Source of the DNA: Gekko japonicus | Taxonomy: Eukaryota | DNA: 64,000 bases | Reading direction: 5' to 3' | Assembly: GCF_001447785.1 (NCBI RefSeq) | Contig: NW_015168044.1 | Coordinates: 595,940 to 659,939, forward strand | Shown here: one piece after another, positions 4,867-33,294 of the stretch | Layout of the letters: each line of letters opens with the position of its first letter | Numbering within the stretch: position 1 is the first letter of the stretch | The notes under the pieces: generated by a model | What the model was told of the DNA's origin: nothing | Database searches by the model: none | The model's input: the letters and a program-made list of their open reading frames with translations, nothing else | Translations under genes and position numbers: made by a program

Positions 4867-5450
4867 TCAACTAAGGATGGAACATAAACATTAATCAATA
4901 GAAACTGGAATTCTCTATGAGACACATGAAAGGCTTGGGCCAATGGTGGGCCAACTGTAAAACAGTAAAATTGGTTGAGTCTTTGAACAAGCAGCAGAGG
5001 CCTGCTTTAGGTCGGCCCTTTGAATTCAGCTTCTAAGCAGGTAATGAATAGGCAGTAAAGTTGTCAATTGAAAAGTCCCTTAAGGACCAAGTCTCTTGAA
5101 GAGAAATGATGTCAAATTTCTCAATAAGTGTCCTGAAGTCCAAGTCATCATATTTATTCCCCCATTCTGCTATATTCCAAGAAATTATTTGTAGGGTTGG
5201 TCTTCCTATACATTCCAGATGTTGGTTGTTCGGGGCTAGTCAATCTAATTCAACTATACAATTAAAGGCTGTGTTATCTTCTGAACATATACATCCATTA
5301 ATCGCCTCCTGGGTTATACCATGAGGTGAATAAGGTTGTTGGCATTTGTTAGCATTTAAAAGGTATGGTTTTGCAGGATCGTTGGTTAAGTAGTGCAATG
5401 TCATTCCTTGCAGGATGAACAAGGGACTGTTGAAGAGTAACTAAAGAGTT

Positions 5451-5674
5451 CACTCTTTCGAGGGGGCATGTATTTGTATTTGCTGTGAGTGGCTTGGGGA
5501 CCACTAGGACCATCGTAGGTAGCTCATCAAGAGGCATCTCAGCATCAATAATTGATTGGGGTCACTCTTTCGAGGGGGCATGTATTTGTATTTGCTGTGA
5601 GTGGCTTGGGGACCACTAGGACCATCGTAGGTAGCTCATCAAGAGGCATCTCAGCATCAATAATTGATTGGGGG
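5451..5674. repeat. ~111-bp tandem duplication
   Basis: TCACTCTTTCGAGGGGGCATG...AATTGATTGGGG occurs twice head-to-tail. Confidence 0.9.
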
Positions 5675-8530: not shown

Positions 8531-9803
8531 CACCTGAATTTCAGTATATCCTTGATGCAGTGCTGTTAACTGTGAGCCGTCCTGAGACCATTCGCAGGGA
8601 AGGCGGGATATAAATCCATATAATAATAATAACAACATGGCTGGTTTCTTGTTTTTCCTCTTTATTTGATGAGCAATAATTGTATGCAAGGAGTTTCCCA
8701 AACACTGATCACTGTAAGATCACATCCCCAGTTCCGGGCCATAGCCAGTGGTGGGGCTTTAGGGGCTGTGCCCCCATCGATTAAGGGGAACTCCAATGCC
8801 AACCAGGCAGCAGGTCCCTGGTGAGCCCCAGCACCAGCCAGCAAGTTGGCTCTCGGAGACTTGCTGGCTGATGCATACGCAGAGAGGCAATGGGGCAGGC
8901 CAATAGAGAAGAGCTCTCAGAGAGCCGACTCGCTGGTTGGCTGGCACAGATGCAGTGAGGTGCCAGGGCGGGCCATTCTCTAATGACCCACTCCGGTGCC
9001 TCACTGCATCTGCACCAGCCAGCATGTCAGCTCTCTGAGAGGTCTCAAAAATCCAACCTGCTGGCTGACAGACAGGCACAAAAGCAGTGAGACATCTACT
9101 TGGAGAGCCAAGGAGGCAGTCAAGCAGCAGGGCAGCTTGCCCCGGCACCTCACTGCATCTGTGCCAGCCAACCAGCAAGTCATCACTCTTCTCTATTGGC
9201 CCACCCCGACGCCTCACTGTGTCTGTGCCAGCTAGCAAGTTGGCTCTCTGAGAGCCGACTCGCTGGCTGGCAGCACTTGCTGCCATGCTGCCTCCTCTTC
9301 ACTCGTGATGACATCACCACGATGCCCCCCAAATCCCAAAGCCCCCTGTCAAAAAATTTCCTGGCGACAGTTTCTGGTACTTTAGGTTCATCAGACCCTC
9401 ATGCTGCTTTTGCCCATACTTGAAAGAACAAGTGTCCTCATGGTTTGGGAACCATCAGGCAGAGCCTCTAGCTCAGAAATGCCCCTGCACAGCAGCAAGC
9501 AAGCTCAGATCCCCCTTGCCTTACGGGCTTGCAAGTCAGTTTGAGCACAGTACTCAGGACCAAGACTCAAGAGCTTCTATGTATGTAAAGCTAACCTTCC
9601 ATCTACTATGGGAAGATCTGTTACATATGTACCATTTTTCAAACCTGCTGAAGGAAGACAAAAATTTGCCCAGCCTCAGGAAGACAGATCAATTGAAAGC
9701 AACCAGAGACCCAAAGTCTGATCTGCTCTCTATAAAACCACATACAACCAACAAGAAGGTACATAGTAGAGTATGAAATTCACAAGAAAAGCAACTGTGT
9801 AAC

Positions 9804-11401
9804 AAAACACTCAAACCTTGTCTTATATAAACTTTTAGTTTCTGTTTAAGCAATAAATTGTATCACTAAAATAGAACAACAACTTTAAGGGGATATCCCA
9901 ATTCTATACTACAGTCAACCCAAACCCGAGCTGTTAGCATAAAGAGGTAACAGTTACTTAATACTGCACCAAAGCCTACATCTTACCTGCTCCTTCAAGT
10001 ATACCCATTTGTCAAATAACATCATGAAGATTATACAGAGATATTGGTATATGGTCTCAGATATACCAGGCTGTGAGATTCCACCTCGTATAGCATATTC
10101 ACGTACACAAAATTCAAAAGATCTATTAGTTTTATCTGACTTTAGGCATCTAAAAGATATGAGCCAACAACCTTTGGGTTTTTATTGTTGTGGGTCCTGT
10201 AAAGCATGCAAATATGCTTTGAATACTAGAAAACTTACACATCCAGACACTTTTTATAGAATAGACATAAAAGGTTTCAGCAACTGCAACACAAAGAAAT
10301 ATATATATATCTTGTCCTTTGTAAATGTAGAAAAAAAATACATTGACAGTACAATAAGGGCTATTAAAACAAGGGTGCTTGAACATATCTTGAGAATTAA
10401 AAATTACATTAGAAAAGCCCCATTAGTGGAACACTATAGGCATATGAATCATTCACCTGAATCTTTGAAATTTCTGGATATATATAAATACATGGGGAAA
10501 CCTAATTCTTATGTGGATGTTCAAAAACACCTGCTACAGATGGAAACTAAAATGATTTTTCACTTAATGCATCCAAAAGGACTGAATTTAATGAATGACT
10601 TCTCTTGCTTTCTGTGAATAGTGTAAAATGATTGAATATATACATTCAGTAAAAGTTATACCTTGGTAGTTTTAATTCGTAGGGGTTAGTTAAGTAAATT
10701 ATATATAAAATATAGGAACTTTACAGGTAAGGTTTTAATAGTGTAGTTGTTCTCAGTTTCTAATGATACAAATAAATACTCCTGTTGGTATCACCTTTAA
10801 GAAGAGAGATGTTCAGGAAGTGCTATCTGCAATTTAGCAACAGCAAACACTTCACTCTTGGAAATGGTGGGAAATGCTGTCTAAGTTCCTTATTAAATCA
10901 AGTAAAGGTAGCTATTTTCTATAATTAAACTATATTGCAAATTGCAATGTCATTTTGAGCTAAATATAACATGTGCCTTTGTTTACAATGTTTTATGTAG
11001 AAGTGCTGCGGAGGACTGTCGACTCCCTAACATCATTGTGCCTTTGTTTACAATGTTTTATGTAGAAGTGCTGCGGAGGACTGTCGACTCCCTAACATCA
11101 TTGTGATTATCAAGCACTGGGAAAAATGAAGATTATACAGAGATATTGGTATATGGTCTCAGACATACCCGGCTGTGAGATTCCACCTCGTATAGCATAT
11201 TCACGTACACAAAATTTAAAAGATCTATTAGTTTTATCTGACTTTAGGCATCTAAAAGATATGAGCCAACAACCTTTGGGTTTTTATTGTTGAATAGTAT
11301 AAGAGTTGGTTTGGTTTGTACTGTACCACTAGAATATGTTGATACAATTTATTGCATAAACAGAAACTAAAAGTTTATATAAGACAAGGTTTGAGTGTTT
11401 T
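9804..11401 (+). mobile_element. Penelope-like element (Neptune-type) 3' part with GIY-YIG endonuclease
   Basis: ORF 10009..10617: CGSCKAC Zn linker, then CNTKKYIY..KYIDSTIRAIKTRVLEH..PLVEHY..E..I..PKGLN; inverted terminal copy 9804-9865/11340-11401; internal duplications. Confidence 0.85.
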
Positions 11402-11869: not shown

Positions 11870-13345
11870 AGCCCTAAGGCAGAAAGGTCTTCCGAAGTGA
11901 TGGCAGCCCGAGAGCTCGAGAGGGGCCTCCCGCACGTGGATGTCCGGTAGGGCTGCCAGCCTCTAAGGAGTGCCGGGAGCCTTCCTGAACTCCAGATGCC
12001 GGAAGTCAGTCCCCCCGGAGAAAAAGGCTGATCCGCAGCGGCCTCCGTGAACATAAGAGATGCCAATGTTGGATCAGGCCAAAGGCCCATCCAGTCCAAC
12101 ACTCTGTATCACACAGTGGCCAGAAATACCAGGTGCCATCAGGAGGTCCAGCAGTGGGGCCAGGACATTAGAAGCCCTCCCACTGTTGACCCCCCCCAAG
12201 CACCAAGAGGTACAGAGCATCACTTGCCCCAGAGCCCCTATCTATACCTTGTGGCTAATAGCCACTGATGGACCTCTGCTCCATATGCTTATCTAATTCC
12301 CTTTTGAAGCTGTCCATGCTTGTAGCCGCCGCCACTTCCTGTGGCAGTGAATTCCATGTGTTCATCACTCTTTGGGTGAAGAAGTGCTTCCTTTTATTCG
12401 TTCTAACCTGACCGCTCAGTAATTTCATGGAGTGCCCACAAGGAGTTCTTGTATTGTGAGAAAGGGAGAAAAGTACCTCTTTCTCGACCTGCTCTATCCC
12501 ATGCATAATCTTATAAACCTCAATCATGTCACCCCTCAGTCGTCGTTTCTCCAAGCTAAAGAGCCCTAAGCGCCTTAACCGTTCCTCATAGGGAAAGTGT
12601 TCCAACCCTTTTATCATTCGAGTTGCCCTTTTCTGCACTTTTTCCAAAGCTATAATATCCTTTTTAAGGTGTGGTGACCAGAACTGCACACAGTATTCCA
12701 AATGAGGTCGCACCATTGATTTATATAGCGGCATTATGATATTGGCTGATCTGTTTACAATACCCTTCCTAATAATCCCCAGCATAGCATTGGCCTTCTT
12801 TATTGCAGTCACACACTGTCTCGACATTTTCAGTGAGTTATCTACTACAACTCCAAGATCTCTCTCTTGATCTGTCTCTGCCAGTTCAGACCCCATCAAC
12901 GTGTATTTATAGTTAGGATTTTTGGCTCCAATGTGCATCACCTTGCACTTGGCCACATTGAACCCCATTTGCCATGTTGACGCCCACTCGCCCAACTTTG
13001 ACAGATCCCTTTGGAGTGCCTCACAATCCTCACTGGTTTTCACCACCCTGAACAACTTCGTATCATCCGCAAATTTAGCCACTTCACTGCTTACTCCCAT
13101 CTCCAAATCATTAATGAACAAGTTAAAAAGCAGTGGACCAAGTACTGATCCCTGTGGTACCCCACTGCTTACACCCCTCCACTGGGAGAACTGCCCATTT
13201 ATACTCACTCTCTGTTTTCACGGGCCTCCCGGGGCGGGGGGAGAAGAGGAAGCCCCGGGAAGGAGGAGGGGGGGGCGTCCACCTGAGGCCTTTCGGGGGG
13301 CGGGGCAGAGGATAAGTGCTTGATAGTAGTGGGCCGCGTTTTGTT
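11870..13345. promoter_or_regulatory. Remnant CpG-island / expected PMPCA-ENTR1 bidirectional promoter, split by a CR1
   Basis: CpG-rich 11880-12046 (ETS core CCGGAAGT at ~11999) and 13220-13345 (GGGGCGGGG boxes); head-to-head gene arrangement. Confidence 0.5.
12049..13219 (-). mobile_element. Young 5'-truncated CR1 LINE (RT C-terminus + 3' UTR/tail)
   Basis: Uninterrupted 317-aa ORF 12255..13208 with GVPQGSVLGPLLF, KFADDTKL, VRPHLEYCVQFWSP; TCTTATGTT tail. Confidence 0.95.
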
Positions 13346-13359
13346 CGCTCCTTTGAAAC

Positions 13360-13785
13360 ATGTTACAAAGGAATGCTGCTGTATGTTCATAAGTTTACAG
13401 AATTATGACAATAAACTGAAGACATTTCCATGATGTTTAAATCCCAATTGTCTTCTTTATTCCACAGATCTAATCAGTGCATGACGAACATCTCGAGTTT
13501 TCAGAGTTCGTTTCGCAGTCTTTATCAAAATTCTGTTTTGCTGGACTTTTTTCTTTCCAAAGCAATCCACTATAAGGAATCTGTATTTCAGAAAGGCTAA
13601 GAATAGCTGTCAAGAAAATCACAACTTCTTTAACCACGGAATAAAAAAGACAATTGGGATTTAAACATCATGGAAATGTCTTCAGTTTATTGTCATAATT
13701 CTGTAAACTTATGAACATACGGCAGCATTTCTTTGTAACATTGTTCATTTAGATTGCTGTGCCCTTTTTGCGCTCCTTTGAAACA
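13360..13785. mobile_element. Fold-back Penelope-type pseudo-LTR insertion with hammerhead-like motif
   Basis: ~104-bp inverted arms 13360-13463/13638-13741; 15-bp direct repeat CGCTCCTTTGAAACA at 13346-13360 and 13771-13785; HHR-like motif on minus 13483-13528. Confidence 0.6.
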
Positions 13786-17727: not shown

Positions 17728-18269
17728 TAGGGGTGTGCAAAAAAAAATAAATATTTGGCCCATTCGGATTCGGCCAAATCGGGCAGAATCAATTTCGGCT
17801 GGCAGTAAGACTCGCATGTCAGTTTCGCAGGGTCCTCAAACAGGTTGCCCCTAACCCCTCCATTGTTCTCTATGGTGGGAAAAAGTTACTTTTTCCCCAC
17901 TATAGAGAACAATGGCCGGGATAGGCGCAACCTGTTTGGGGGCCCATAGAATTGGACCCCCTAATTCAATGTTCTTCAAACTTGGTTGGTATCTTGGGGA
18001 GAGGCCCCAGCAGCTACCCTGCGAGTTTGGAGCCTCTCCCTCAAACCCCCTTTTCTCCAGCCCCCAGAATATACCCTATGTTTTCGCCATTGATTTCAAT
18101 GGCCCATAGGATATAATGGGGCCGAATTGCCACCGAAATTCGGTGGCAATTCGGCAACAAGCCGATTCAGATCAGAGAATCTAAATCGGCCTGCAGCAGC
18201 CTGAAAAGGGTCCAAATGGGCCATTTTCGGGGGTGCATTTGGTTTGGACGAGCTAAATACACATCCCTA
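17728..18269. mobile_element. Non-autonomous hAT-type DNA transposon
   Basis: TIRs TAGGGGTGTGCA / TACACATCCCTA; degenerate 8-bp TSD CTCTCGAC/CTCCTGAC. Confidence 0.7.
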
Positions 18270-28574: not shown

Positions 28575-30706
28575 CTAGGAAAAAGGCCCGTTATGGAAAT
28601 AAATACAACGGCCTCTAGAAAGGGTCTCTGGGCGGGTGTCCTGGCCTGCTCAGAAGGCAGAGCATCACTTGCCCCAGAGCCCCTATCTATACCTTGTGGC
28701 TAATAGCCACTGATGGACCTCTGCTCCATATGCTTATCTAATTCCCTTTTGAAGCCGTCCATGCTTGTAGCACCCACCACTTCCTGTGGCAGTGAATTCC
28801 ATGTGTTAATCACTCTTTGGGTGAAGAAGTACTTCCTTTTATCCGTTCTAACCCGACCACTCTGCAGTTTCATGGAGTGCCCACGAGTTCTTGTATTGTG
28901 AGAAAGGGAGAAAAGTACCTCTTTCTCTACCTGCTCTTTCCCATGCATAATCTTATAAACCTCAATCATGTCACCCCTCAGTCATCATTTCTCCAAGCTA
29001 AAGAGCCCTAAGCGCCTTAACCGTTCCTCATAGGGAAAGTGTTCCAACCCTTTTATCATTCGAGTTGCCCTTTTCTGCACTTTTTCCAAAGCTATAATAT
29101 CCTTTTTAAGGTGTGGTGACCAGAACTGCACACAGTATTCCAAATGAGGTCTCACCATTGATTTATATAGGGGCATTATGATATTGGCTGATCTGTTTTC
29201 AATACCCTTCCTAATAATCCCCAGCATAGCATTGGCCTTCTTTATTGCAGTCACACACTGTCTCGACATTTTCAGTGAGTTATCCACTACAACTCCAAGA
29301 TCTCTCTCTTGATCAGTCTCTGCCAGTTCAGACCCCATCAATGTGTATTTATATTTAGGATTTTTGGCTCCAATGTGCATCACCTTGCACTTGGCCACAT
29401 TGAACCCCATTTGCCATGTTGACGCCCACTCGCCCATCCTTGACAGATCCCCTTGGAGTGCCTCACAATCCTCACTGGTTTTCACCACCCTGAACAACTT
29501 TGTATCATCCGCAAATTTAGCCACTTCACTGCTTACTCCCATCTCCAAATCATTAATGAACAAGTTAAAAAGCAGTGGACCAAGTACTGATCCCTGCGGT
29601 ACCCCACTGCTTACCACCCTCCACTGAGAAAATTGCCCACCTACACTCACTCTCTGTTTTCTATGAACTAGCCAGTTTTTGATCCATAAAAGGACTTGTC
29701 CTTCTATCCCATGATTTTTGAGCTTACTTAGGAGCCTTTGATGAGGAACTTTATCAAAAGCTTTCTGGAAGTCAAGGTAAATAATATCTATTGGATCCCC
29801 CTTGTCCACATGTTTGTTCACCCCCTCAAAGAACACTAACAGGTTAGTGAGACAAGATCTTCCCTTACAGAAACCGTGCTGAGTCTGCCTCAATAGGTTT
29901 TGTTCATCTATGTGCCTACTAATTCTTTCCTTAATAATGGTTTCCACCAATTTACCCGGTATCGACGTCAGACTGATTGGCCTGTAATTTCCCGGATCTC
30001 CTCTGGAACCCTTTTTAAAGATGGGAGTGACATTTGCTACCTTCCAATCCTCAGGAATGGAGGCAGATTTTAAGGAAAGATTACATATTTTTGTAAGGAG
30101 ATCCAGAAGTTCACATTTGAGTTCTTTCAGAACTCTCGGATGTATGCCATCTGGGCCTGGTGATTTATCAGTTTTTAAGTTGTCTATCAGTTTTAGGACC
30201 TCCTCTCTTGTCACCTTGGTTTGACTCAGGTCTTTCAACACCCCTCCTGAAATCAGCGGTTCTGGAGTGGGCAAGCAACTTTGTATCTGGAGTGATACAG
30301 AGCCCACCATTTTCTCCCTGGGGACTGATCTCTGCCGTCTGGAAAGCAGTTGTAATTCTGAGTGATCTCCAGCCCTCACCTGGAGATTGGACACATATTA
30401 CCTCAGAACAGCAAAACTGTTTAGAATGTTAGAGGCAAAAGCCAATCAAGTCGCATATGCAAACGACCTCTGTGTTCCGAGGCAAAGGCCAATGAGGCTG
30501 CATATGCAAATAACCTCTGTGTTCTGACTGGCTGTGGGGGGAGAGGAAGAGCAAACTGTTTAGAATGTTGGAGGCAGGACTCAGGCAAAGCAGCCAGTGG
30601 ATAGGGAGACCCTCTGAACGACAGATCAGAGAGCGAACTGATTTTGGAGCGTGTGGAATGTTCTAGAGAAGTGCCACCACCATTCAGCTTTTATTTATAA
30701 GGGAGA
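28575..30706 (-). mobile_element. Non-autonomous Helitron containing a CR1 segment
   Basis: Minus 5' A|TCTCCCTTATAAATAAAAGC; 3' hairpin CCGTTGT..ATAACGG then CTAG|T; no TSD. Confidence 0.75.
28657..30280 (-). mobile_element. CR1 LINE RT region, same young family as 12049-13219, lacking both 5' end and 3' tail
   Basis: ORF 28985..30394 with KSPGPDGIHPRVLKEL, NYRPISLTS, YLDFQKAFDKV, FADD; CGA>TGA stop at 28985. Confidence 0.95.
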
Positions 30707-31383: not shown

Positions 31384-32344
31384 AAGGGCCACAGCCCCCA
31401 CCCTCCTGTAGGCCAGATTCCCCCCCCTCCCCGGCCACTCAGAGGGGCTCCTCCGGCTGCCGCTGCGCCGCTGCAAGGAGACCGGGGGAGCGTTTTCTGG
31501 GCTGCCTTCACGCTTTAAAACGGGCTGCCTCCCTGCAGCCCCTCGGCAAACCTGGGAGCCCCCGCCCCTGCCGCCCGGGGCCGTGCCTCCTTCCGGCCAG
31601 ACATCAAAGCACAAATTGCTGCAAGGTTCTTACAGTGAAAAAGATGGACAATAATAGACTATAAATAATGAGCTTTATGATGTTTAATTCTTGTATTTTC
31701 AACGACAGGATGCCATCAGAAGAGTGATGACACCAAGAGAAGGACGAACCTCTCGAGTGATCGTTCATTTCGAAGAGTTTCTTTTTCAAACAGATCTCAG
31801 TTCTGTAGTTTTTCTTAATATGACCAAACCACAATGCAGTTCTTACACTCAACAACTCTGTTTCAGCTCTAGTTGTTGAGTGTAAGAATTGGATTGTGGT
31901 TTGGTCATATTAAGAAAAACTACAGAACTGAGATCTGTTTGAAAAAGAAACTCTTCGAAATGAACGATCACTCGAGAGGTTCGTCCTTCTCTTGGTGTCA
32001 TCACTCTTCTGATGGCATCCTGTCGTTGAAAATACAAGAATTAAACATCATAAAGCTCATTATTTATAGTCTATTATTGTCCATCTTTTTCACTGTAAGA
32101 ACCTTGCAGCAATTTGTGCTTTGATGTCTGGCCGGAAGGAGGCACGGCCCCGGGCGGCAGGGGCGGGGGCTCCCAGGTTTGCCGAGGGGCTGCAGGGAGG
32201 CAGCCCGTTTTAAAGCGTGAAGGCAGCCCAGAAAACGCTCCCCCGGTCTCCTTGCAGCGGCGCAGCGGCAGCCGGAGGAGCCCCTCTGAGTGGCCGGGGA
32301 GGGGGGGGAATCTGGCCTACAGGAGGGTGGGGGCTGTGGCCCTT
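31384..32344. repeat. Near-perfect 474-bp-arm palindrome (13-nt loop)
   Basis: 31384-31857 is the reverse complement of 31871-32344 (only a few mismatches seen); mirrored ORFs in track. Confidence 0.95.
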
Positions 32345-32620
32345 TAACAATTCTCTTGTTCCTGCTTCTTTCAAACGCTTTGGAATAAATTTTGCTTTAA
32401 CCTTTAAACGTGGATTTATTTTGGAGTCATTGGAGATTCAACAGGTGTCATCACTCTTCTGGTGGCATCCTGTCGCTGAAAATACAAGAATTAAACATCA
32501 CAAAGCTCATTATTTATAGTCTATTATTGTCCACCTTTTTCACTGTAAGAACCTTGCAGCAATTTGTGCTTTGATGTCCATTGTATTGCTGTTCCCTTGA
32601 TTGCTATCCTTCCGGCCAGA
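31602..32620. mobile_element. Fold-back Penelope-type pseudo-LTR insertion with hammerhead-like motif
   Basis: Inverted + tandem copies of an AT-rich unit (third copy 32444-32578); 14-bp direct repeat TCCTTCCGGCCAGA at 31588-31601 and 32607-32620; HHR-like motif 31939-31985. Confidence 0.6.
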
Positions 32621-33294
32621 GCCAGCGCGGACCCAGGGCAGGCTTTCCAGGGCACGAGGCGAGCAGACTGGCAGACCCAAGTCCCGGCCGGGGCCGCCGC
32701 CTCCGCGCTCCGGGCCTTCGTCGCTGTTCCCACGCGGCTCCCTCGCCGCCGGTCTTCCAGCCTCCCCCGGAGAAGCTTTCGGGACCGGGCGGGCGGAGTG
32801 AGCGAGCCAGCGGCCGGCGCCTGCGCGAGCCACTGCGGCGGGACTGCGCCTGCGCGCCCGCCCCGCCCCCCGCAAGGCCCGCCCCNNNNNNNNNNNNNNN
32901 NNNNNNNNNNNNNNNNNNNNNNNNNNNNNNNNNNNNNNNNNNNNNNNNNNNNNNNNNNNNNNNNNNNNNNNNNNNNNNNNNNNNNNNNNNNNNNNNNNNN
33001 NNNNNNNNNNNNNNNNNNNNNNNNNNNNNNNNNNNNNNNNNNNNNNNNNNNNNNNNNNNNNNNNNNNNNNNNNNNNNNNNNNNNNNNNNNNNNNNNNNNN
33101 NNNNNNNNNNNNNNNNNNNNNNNNNNNNNNNNNNNNNNNNNNNNNNNNNNNNNNNNNNNNNNNNNNNNNNNNNNNNNNNNNNNNNNNNNNNNNNNNNNNN
33201 NNNNNNNNNNNNNNNNNNNNNNNNNNNNNNNNNNNNNNNNCAGGCGGGTCGCGGCGGGGGTGGCTGGTCCGGACGGAAGCGCTGCGGCCGCGGC
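32620..33294 (+). promoter_or_regulatory. SNAPC4 CpG-island promoter
   Basis: Very CpG-rich; NRF1-like TGCGCCTGCGC 32845-32855, GC boxes 32856-32885; island also extends to 31290-31600. Confidence 0.75.
32886..33240. other. Assembly gap (N), probably hiding SNAPC4 first coding exon
   Basis: Run of N within the CpG island; next exon starts in phase 1 without ATG. Confidence 0.9.

Follow-up and report, generated by a model that had tools for sequence, protein, structure and literature searches.

A hammerhead-like motif with a U3-A8 core in the pseudo-LTR of a probable Penelope-like family of Gekko japonicus

In Gekko japonicus, an almost perfect palindrome lies upstream of SNAPC4, and each of its arms holds a 47-nt stretch that can be laid out like a type-I hammerhead ribozyme with U3 and A8 in place of C3 and G8. 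This raises the questions of which element brought the motif to this locus, whether it is akin to the hammerheads of Penelope-like elements (PLEs), and whether an RNA that carries it would be cut. We addressed these questions in the window, that is, the whole stretch of 64,000 nucleotides analysed here (contig NW_015168044.1, positions 595,940 to 659,939), and in sequencing runs and published hammerheads. The insertion at the palindrome is called element A, and a diverged sister insertion in the same window element B (Table 1).

Table 1. Features of the two insertions and their motifs, in window coordinates
Feature	Position	Strand	Remarks
Element B	13340..13785		duplication, inverted pLTR, sense piece, tail
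Sister hammerhead-like motif in element B	13483..13528	-	U3/A8, N7=U, extra A, CTCGAG, GUC
Left target-site duplication of A, 13 bp	31588..31600	+	last base common to pLTR end
Inverted pLTR copy without tail, 271 nt	31600..31870	-	motif inside
Identical motif copy in inverted pLTR	31743..31789	-	by sequence identity
Sense pLTR copy with motif	31871..32128	+	from repeat comparison and DNA runs
GAG, may pair with loop II CUC in a 3-bp knot	31930..31932	+	-9..-7 from U3; presumptive, chosen post hoc
Type-I hammerhead-like motif	31939..31985	+	core, helix II, GAAA, helix III; predicted cut after C31985
CTCGAG palindrome, loop III	31971..31976	+	also in element B and the RNA-read variant
Inverted copy of unique left flank 31384-31599, 216 nt	32129..32344	-	possible assembly fold-back
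Part of an unrelated repeat of very high copy number, 99 nt	32345..32443	+	contig depth up to 3e5 vs ~45 in unique flank
Sense pLTR 3' piece	32444..32578	+	131/135 identical to 31994-32128; starts 8 nt after predicted cut
28-nt tail	32579..32606	+	family sequence by depth
Right target-site duplication of A	32607..32619	+	empty allele joins here, both DNA runs

Sequence of the motif and its chance rate

The initial annotation had proposed a type-I hammerhead layout within the pseudo-LTR (pLTR) of a Penelope-like element, with an identical copy on the minus strand. The letters are indeed there, and the proposed layout is supported. In our register, U3 U4 G5 A6 A7 A8 A9 occupy 31939-31945 and an extra A follows at 31946. 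This A had been counted into stem II by mistake; the stem itself is present, as a helix II of 3 bp (GAA/UUC) with the loop ACUC (31947-31956). G12-A14 (31957-31959) lie within the GAAA, and helix III (31960-31984) comprises 6 bp, A15.1-U16.1 and UGAAC/GUUCG, around a 13-nt loop, after which C17 stands at 31985. The hammerhead core (U4 G5 A6, A9, G12 A13 A14, A15.1-U16.1 and H17) is complete in both A and B. The 3-8 Watson-Crick pair is U3-A8 in A, in B, in the main contig of the family and in a variant found in RNA reads. The extra base between 9 and 10.1 and the CTCGAG of loop III are common to A, B and the read variant, and G10.1-C11.1 closes helix II in both elements, over 3 bp in A and 1 bp in B.

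Scanning both strands of the window with a descriptor returned three U3/A8 sites (the motif, its mirror copy and the one at 13528 on the minus strand) and one weak C3/G8 site, with no C3/A8 or U3/G8 site. All three U3/A8 sites have five further helix III pairs and the GUC. In 200 dinucleotide shuffles, any paired core occurred at a mean of 0.65 sites per window and a helix III of at least 5 bp at 0.025 sites per window, while the combination of U3/A8, helix III of at least 5 bp and GUC occurred in 0/200. The motif is not a product of chance, because a diverged sister element and three RNA reads keep the core, helix III, CTCGAG and GUC. As had been anticipated, standard searches miss this U3/A8 variant: three Rfam scans, run without a positive control, gave no match to a hammerhead family at E up to 10, their 13, 4 and 4 weak matches being to other families. 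A pattern scan of metagenomes gave 16 exact matches, which we set aside as chance or unrelated since none of the 16 has CTCGAG in the loop and 15 of the 16 contigs have at least 55% G+C.

Anatomy of the insertions and their surroundings

The arms of the inverted repeat in element A (31384-31857 and 31871-32344) are complementary at 472 of 474 positions, and both mismatches lie near the centre, outside the motif. Since the two arms are one duplicated sequence, the motif counts once, and the mirror copy, which had been offered as support, adds no evidence; it is element B that provides independent evidence for the motif. The 13-nt 'spacer' between the arms (31858-31870) resembles family sequence upstream of 31871, as seen at a loose end before 31871 and in a junction contig of the DNA run X1. 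The palindrome also reaches 216 nt into the unique G+C-rich flank. The 99-nt repeat piece at 32345-32443 is transcribed (RNA depth ~550 in run X20) and is presumably an LTR end, by its looks. No open reading frame is attached to A or B, neither reverse transcriptase nor endonuclease, and the main family contig reads ACG in place of the ATG at 31960-31962, so that no start codon is kept.

Element B was first detected by BLAST (E 0.004). Its target-site duplication (13340-13360/13765-13785) agrees at 19 of 21 positions; the inverted pLTR runs from 13637 to 13360, is ~278 nt long, lacks a tail and contains the motif, and a sense piece (13638-13741), which starts 19 nt after the cut site, is followed by a tail of ~23 nt to ~13764. 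The B motif has a helix II of 1 bp, a helix III of 6 bp that are all Watson-Crick, and a 16-nt loop with CTCGAG. A and B are identical at 32/47 positions in the motif and at 93/211 in the rest of the pLTR (Fisher p 0.0035, with boundaries chosen by us), and within the motif they differ where a hammerhead tolerates it, namely at N7 (A or U), at 15.2 (U-G vs C-G) and in the lengths of helix II and the loops. The tails of A and B have a ATTGCTGT.CCCTT block in common. TCCTT is found in the target-site duplications of each element, and CCCTT near the end of each tail (n=2), a likeness that could reflect target preference or priming homology.

Both elements thus consist of an inverted 5'-truncated pLTR beside a sense pLTR piece, with a tail on one end and a target-site duplication. 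An inverted 5'-truncated pLTR with a tail at one end is a PLE arrangement in the available part of PMC8557442, where the tails measure 30-40 nt as against 28 nt in A and ~23 nt in B. We infer that A and B are Penelope-like insertions, at a locus that retains no open reading frame. A non-LTR retrozyme was considered and rejected: such elements, as far as the accessible text describes them, are head-to-tail tandem units with a hammerhead in each (bioRxiv 10.64898/2026.07.22.740005), whereas the copies here are inverted or single.

SNAPC4 does lie downstream, as had been annotated: a Myb-repeat exon at 44377-44544 matches a solved SNAPC4 chain at E 1e-19, and a CpG-rich stretch begins at ~32600. 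The label of promoter given to the palindrome locus is presumptive only. In RNA that ran through both arms, the motif would be enclosed in a long duplex, and since such a read-through hairpin would hide it, the copy at this locus, next to the SNAPC4 CpG island, is likely no more than a passive passenger.

Other repeats of the window were inspected for relatives. A stop-free frame of 224 aa at 9943-10617(+) has protein-model features that match eukaryotic GIY-YIG clusters at 0.96-0.97, with no Pfam match; going by these features, it probably represents the endonuclease end of a different PLE family. By its motifs we take this remnant to be Neptune-like. It is flanked by two repeat pairs, one of them inverted (9804-9865/11340-11401) and the other direct (10024-10190/11126-11292). 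No sequence link between the remnant and the A/B pLTR was found, nor a protein link to the open frame of the pLTR (E 0.07), and relaxed scans and an A+B profile revealed no hammerhead beside it. The same scans and profile found no hammerhead motif in two degenerate palindromes, at 8834-9270 (66%) and 17830-17945 (85%). A perfect head-to-tail duplication of 112 nt (5450-5673) and a perfect overlapping 69-nt repeat (10972-11105) are also present, either of which is possibly an assembly join. Two long open reverse-transcriptase frames, at 28985-30397(-) and 12255-13217(-), belong to a LINE family, presumably CR1-like; they are 96% alike over 1007 nt and the family has therefore been recently active.

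Family copies, alleles and transcripts in sequencing runs

Four of the 24 listed runs, the DNA runs X1 and X2 and the RNA runs X20 and X21, were mapped on 31858-32700 at 80% likeness. An empty allele, in which 32162 is joined to 32607, occurs in both DNA runs; a contig spanning the pLTR-flank junction was obtained in X1, with none among the 16 of 334 pieces listed for X2. Given the empty allele in both DNA runs and the junction contig in X1, the A insertion is likely polymorphic and recent. The depth of the junction contig (46.6, vs 41.9-46.5 for the other allele) fits one copy and not two, and the joint 32344/32345 is unsupported by any listed X1 joint. The mirrored flank 32129-32344 is thus possibly a fold-back of the assembly, but X1 does not have to come from the animal that was assembled, and such a gap proves nothing.

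The family has many near-identical copies. Its main contig in X1 (31930-32091) has a depth of 894 vs 42-47 for the flank alleles, i.e. ~20-fold, depth not being copy number. It differs from the window only at 31961, 31969 and 32051. U3 and A8 are kept, and C at 31961 turns the U-G pair of helix III into C-G. The U2.1/C1.1 mismatch that abolishes helix I in A is also found in this contig and is therefore not a private decay of A.

RNA coverage of the pLTR is low, with a depth of ~5 in X20 (3% of the run, both orientations) and 3-4 in X21. Three X21 reads with 2 starts define a third variant of the motif, which keeps U3/A8, the palindrome, the extra A, G10.1-C11.1, the GAAA, a 6-bp helix III and the GUC. 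In this variant N7 is U, the third helix II pair is G-U, GG immediately precedes U3, and loop III has three changes that leave CTCGAG intact; the sequence after the cut is barely covered. No pile-up of RNA ends at the predicted cut was listed and reads cross it, at a depth of only 3-5 that gives little power. A search of indexed runs returned no RNA run among the matches listed. No C3/G8 relative of the A/B family was seen, and the covariation at 3/8 that the initial annotation proposed to test is accordingly not demonstrable inside the family.

Relation to known hammerheads and the question of cleavage

The U3/A8 combination had been presented as a compensatory form of the 3-8 pair. This agrees with the literature, and the variant is not new, the form being already published. 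U3-A8 is a natural covariation of the active pair (Perreault et al. 2011, PMC3088659), and it is found in ~1,300 Schistosoma mansoni PLE hammerheads (Cervera and De la Pena 2014, PMC4209133), to go by the accessible parts of both papers. The latter source gives as marks of PLE hammerheads a nucleotide after A9, G10.1-C11.1 and a palindromic 15.2-16.2/loop III. The motifs of the Cercyon PLEs of S. mansoni resemble A and B in type-I order, U3-A8, the extra base after A9, G10.1-C11.1, the helix/loop III palindrome, their location in the pLTR and in occurring in inverted pairs as well (PMC4209133, in part). Indeed, in Fig. S3 of that paper the row S. mansoni 4 (UUGAAAAA) equals the A core and the row S. 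mansoni 3 (UUGAUAAA) the B core.

The proportions of the helices are another matter. Read by eye, the metazoan examples of Fig. S3 have a helix I of at least 2 bp (56/56), a helix II of 3-8 bp and a helix III of at most ~3 bp with a loop of at most 4 nt, as compared with 0-1 bp, 1-3 bp, and 6 bp with a loop of 13-16 nt in A and B; their cores, also by eye, are U3-A8 in 2/56 rows and C3-G8 in 11/11 vertebrate rows (PMC4209133). The term 'minimal' used in the initial annotation is therefore inappropriate, helix III having 6 bp. We likewise rejected a min-HHR, which has little or no helix III, a long helix II and a need for a dimer, because A and B have a helix III of 6 bp and a helix II of 1-3 bp. 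The accompanying rationale of cleavage in a dimer does not apply as worded, since a 6-bp helix III can close within one molecule. Fungal and protist PLE type-I hammerheads share with A and B a large helix III, with variable helices I and II, but according to the text and legend they reside in endonuclease-less telomeric elements; the one tested cleaves as a monomer (PMC4209133, in part).

A vertebrate comparison is PAc (Poseidon), a PLE of Anolis carolinensis, in which, according to the available text, the hammerhead lies upstream of the pLTR end with an optional tail, as in A and B (Frangieh et al. 2024, PMC11167929). As in the A-family reads, no RNA-seq ends fall at the cut. In contrast, PAc has a C3-G8 core and its open reading frame begins at helix II, while A keeps no start codon. 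The PAc hammerhead cleaves only with its protein and is dispensable for insertion in vitro (PMC11167929). The hammerheads of Perreault et al. are like A and B in U3-A8 covariation and in a helix II of 1-2 bp with a helix I-II knot, but the knot tested there has 6 bp and helix I is present, whereas the knot of A and B is a 3-bp guess (PMC3088659, in part). No report of the A/B architecture in a vertebrate PLE appeared among the papers listed in literature searches, although Lunse et al. 2016 (PLE hammerhead variants, via PMC6765202) may describe one, and the part of PMC6155905 available contains nothing against a hammerhead-like PLE reading of A and B. On sequence, then, the U3-A8 core is already known and what is unusual is the proportions, with a long helix III and almost no helix I. 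The motif would work like a PLE type-I hammerhead and likely descends from one.

The weakness of stem I, which had been noticed before, is real: in register, helix I has 0 bp in A and the main family contig and a single pair in B, and 24% (A) and 36% (B) of 1000 shuffles form flank duplexes that are at least as good. Because helix I with its 1.1-2.1 pair is absent, we file the motif as a hammerhead-like variant, without established ribozyme status. A type III reading through a hairpin 5' of U3 (31922-31938) was rejected by eye, since it would put C at 16.1 and the hairpin is missing from B. We also rejected the idea that splicing supplies helix I, as it does in D. virilis, since neither A nor B has an upstream pyrimidine tract (by eye).

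Both the fold of the motif and any cleavage are matters of prediction. The hammerhead-constrained fold lies above the minimum by 6.5 (A) and 13.8 kcal/mol (B). The predicted pair probability of helix III is 0.0 in A with 30-nt flanks and 0.95-1.0 in B, that of helix II is 0.09 (A) and 0.0 (B), and the folding z-scores (+0.72, +0.43, -0.45 and -0.63 for A; -1.86 and -1.53 for B) are not notable. A self-duplex of the helix III region reaches -17.3 (A) and -18.4 kcal/mol (B), vs -4.6 and -8.0 per monomer, so that two RNAs might pair through CUCGAG. Since 14-19% of loops as large as these contain a 6-nt palindrome by chance, only the conservation of CTCGAG counts. Loop II ends in three bases that are complementary to a 5'-flank triplet, CUC/GAG at -9 in A, CUG/CAG at -7 in B and, by eye, UUC/GAA at -8 in the read variant. 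As 10-18% of control windows per element also yield a partner, a knot between loop II and the 5' flank is to be taken as a post hoc lead.

We therefore favour, with a probability of about 0.7, a type-I hammerhead with the published U3-A8 core in the pLTR of a Penelope-like family that is likely young. The RNA of the element would be cut after GUC, only poorly by the hammerhead alone because helix I is almost absent, and cutting would likely need the element's protein or a partner RNA. Weak hints of cutting come from the genome itself. In an X2 contig (depth 106), 8 letters are missing at 31986, if the place given by the tool is the first missing letter; this is the only pLTR indel among 11 of 13 rows. 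Moreover, the pieces with a tail begin downstream of the cut, by 8 nt in A and 19 nt in B. As a counterpoint, the sense arm 31871-32128 starts 115 nt before the cut, and the adjoining repeat 32345-32443 may explain the start of the sense piece in A.

The alternative to be taken most seriously, although we consider it improbable, is a catalytically dead derivative that has lost helix I and in which the core, helix III and CUCGAG persist as a signal for protein binding or RNA dimerisation, or as part of an internal promoter. The near absence of helix I in A, B and the main family contig, the stability of the self-duplex relative to the monomers and the in vitro transposition of PAc hammerhead mutants (PMC11167929, in part) would all suit such a signal. 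Yet every catalytic position and the GUC are kept in A and B, one contig carries a deletion at the cut, and a helix I of just 2 bp is known in D. virilis PLEs (PMC4209133, in part). An efficient stand-alone monomer, in which helix III closes in cis and the knot between loop II and the 5' flank compensates for helix I, ranks far behind both weak assisted cleavage and the dead signal and seems to us very unlikely. The 6-bp helix III with its high pair probability in B and the complementary triplets of A, B and the read variant would be expected of it; knotted hammerheads whose helix II has a single pair are on record (PMC3088659), and fungal PLE hammerheads with a long helix III cleave as monomers (PMC4209133), according to the accessible parts of these papers. 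However, the knot has 3 bp, was found post hoc at the chance rate given above and leaves the 1.1-2.1 pair unsupplied, and A misfolds in the model. That A/T-rich repeat DNA resembles a hammerhead here by chance, or that the palindromic assembly created the motif, is scarcely credible: the palindrome may be partly mis-assembled and Rfam gives no match, but the shuffle counts, the diverged element B and the presence of the motif in independent runs contradict it.

A bolder form of the favoured reading, assisted cleavage by a type-I hammerhead, is rather doubtful. It would make the motif a vertebrate Penelope hammerhead of inverted proportions, with the U3-A8 core, a stable 6-bp helix III bearing a conserved kissing palindrome, a helix II of 1-3 bp that three covarying pairs tie in a knot to the 5' flank, and a helix I that is almost absent. 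It would cut in vivo only together with the element's protein or in an RNA dimer, leaving genomic footprints in the form of a deletion at the cut and of pieces that begin just past it.

To conclude, searches whose descriptor requires helix I or C3/G8 would overlook the entire A/B family. As to the role of hammerheads in PLEs, the one reconstituted element needed no cleavage in vitro (PMC11167929, in part). If the reading of inverted proportions is true, the footprints of the cut would show directly that insertions are shaped by the cleavage of PLE hammerheads.
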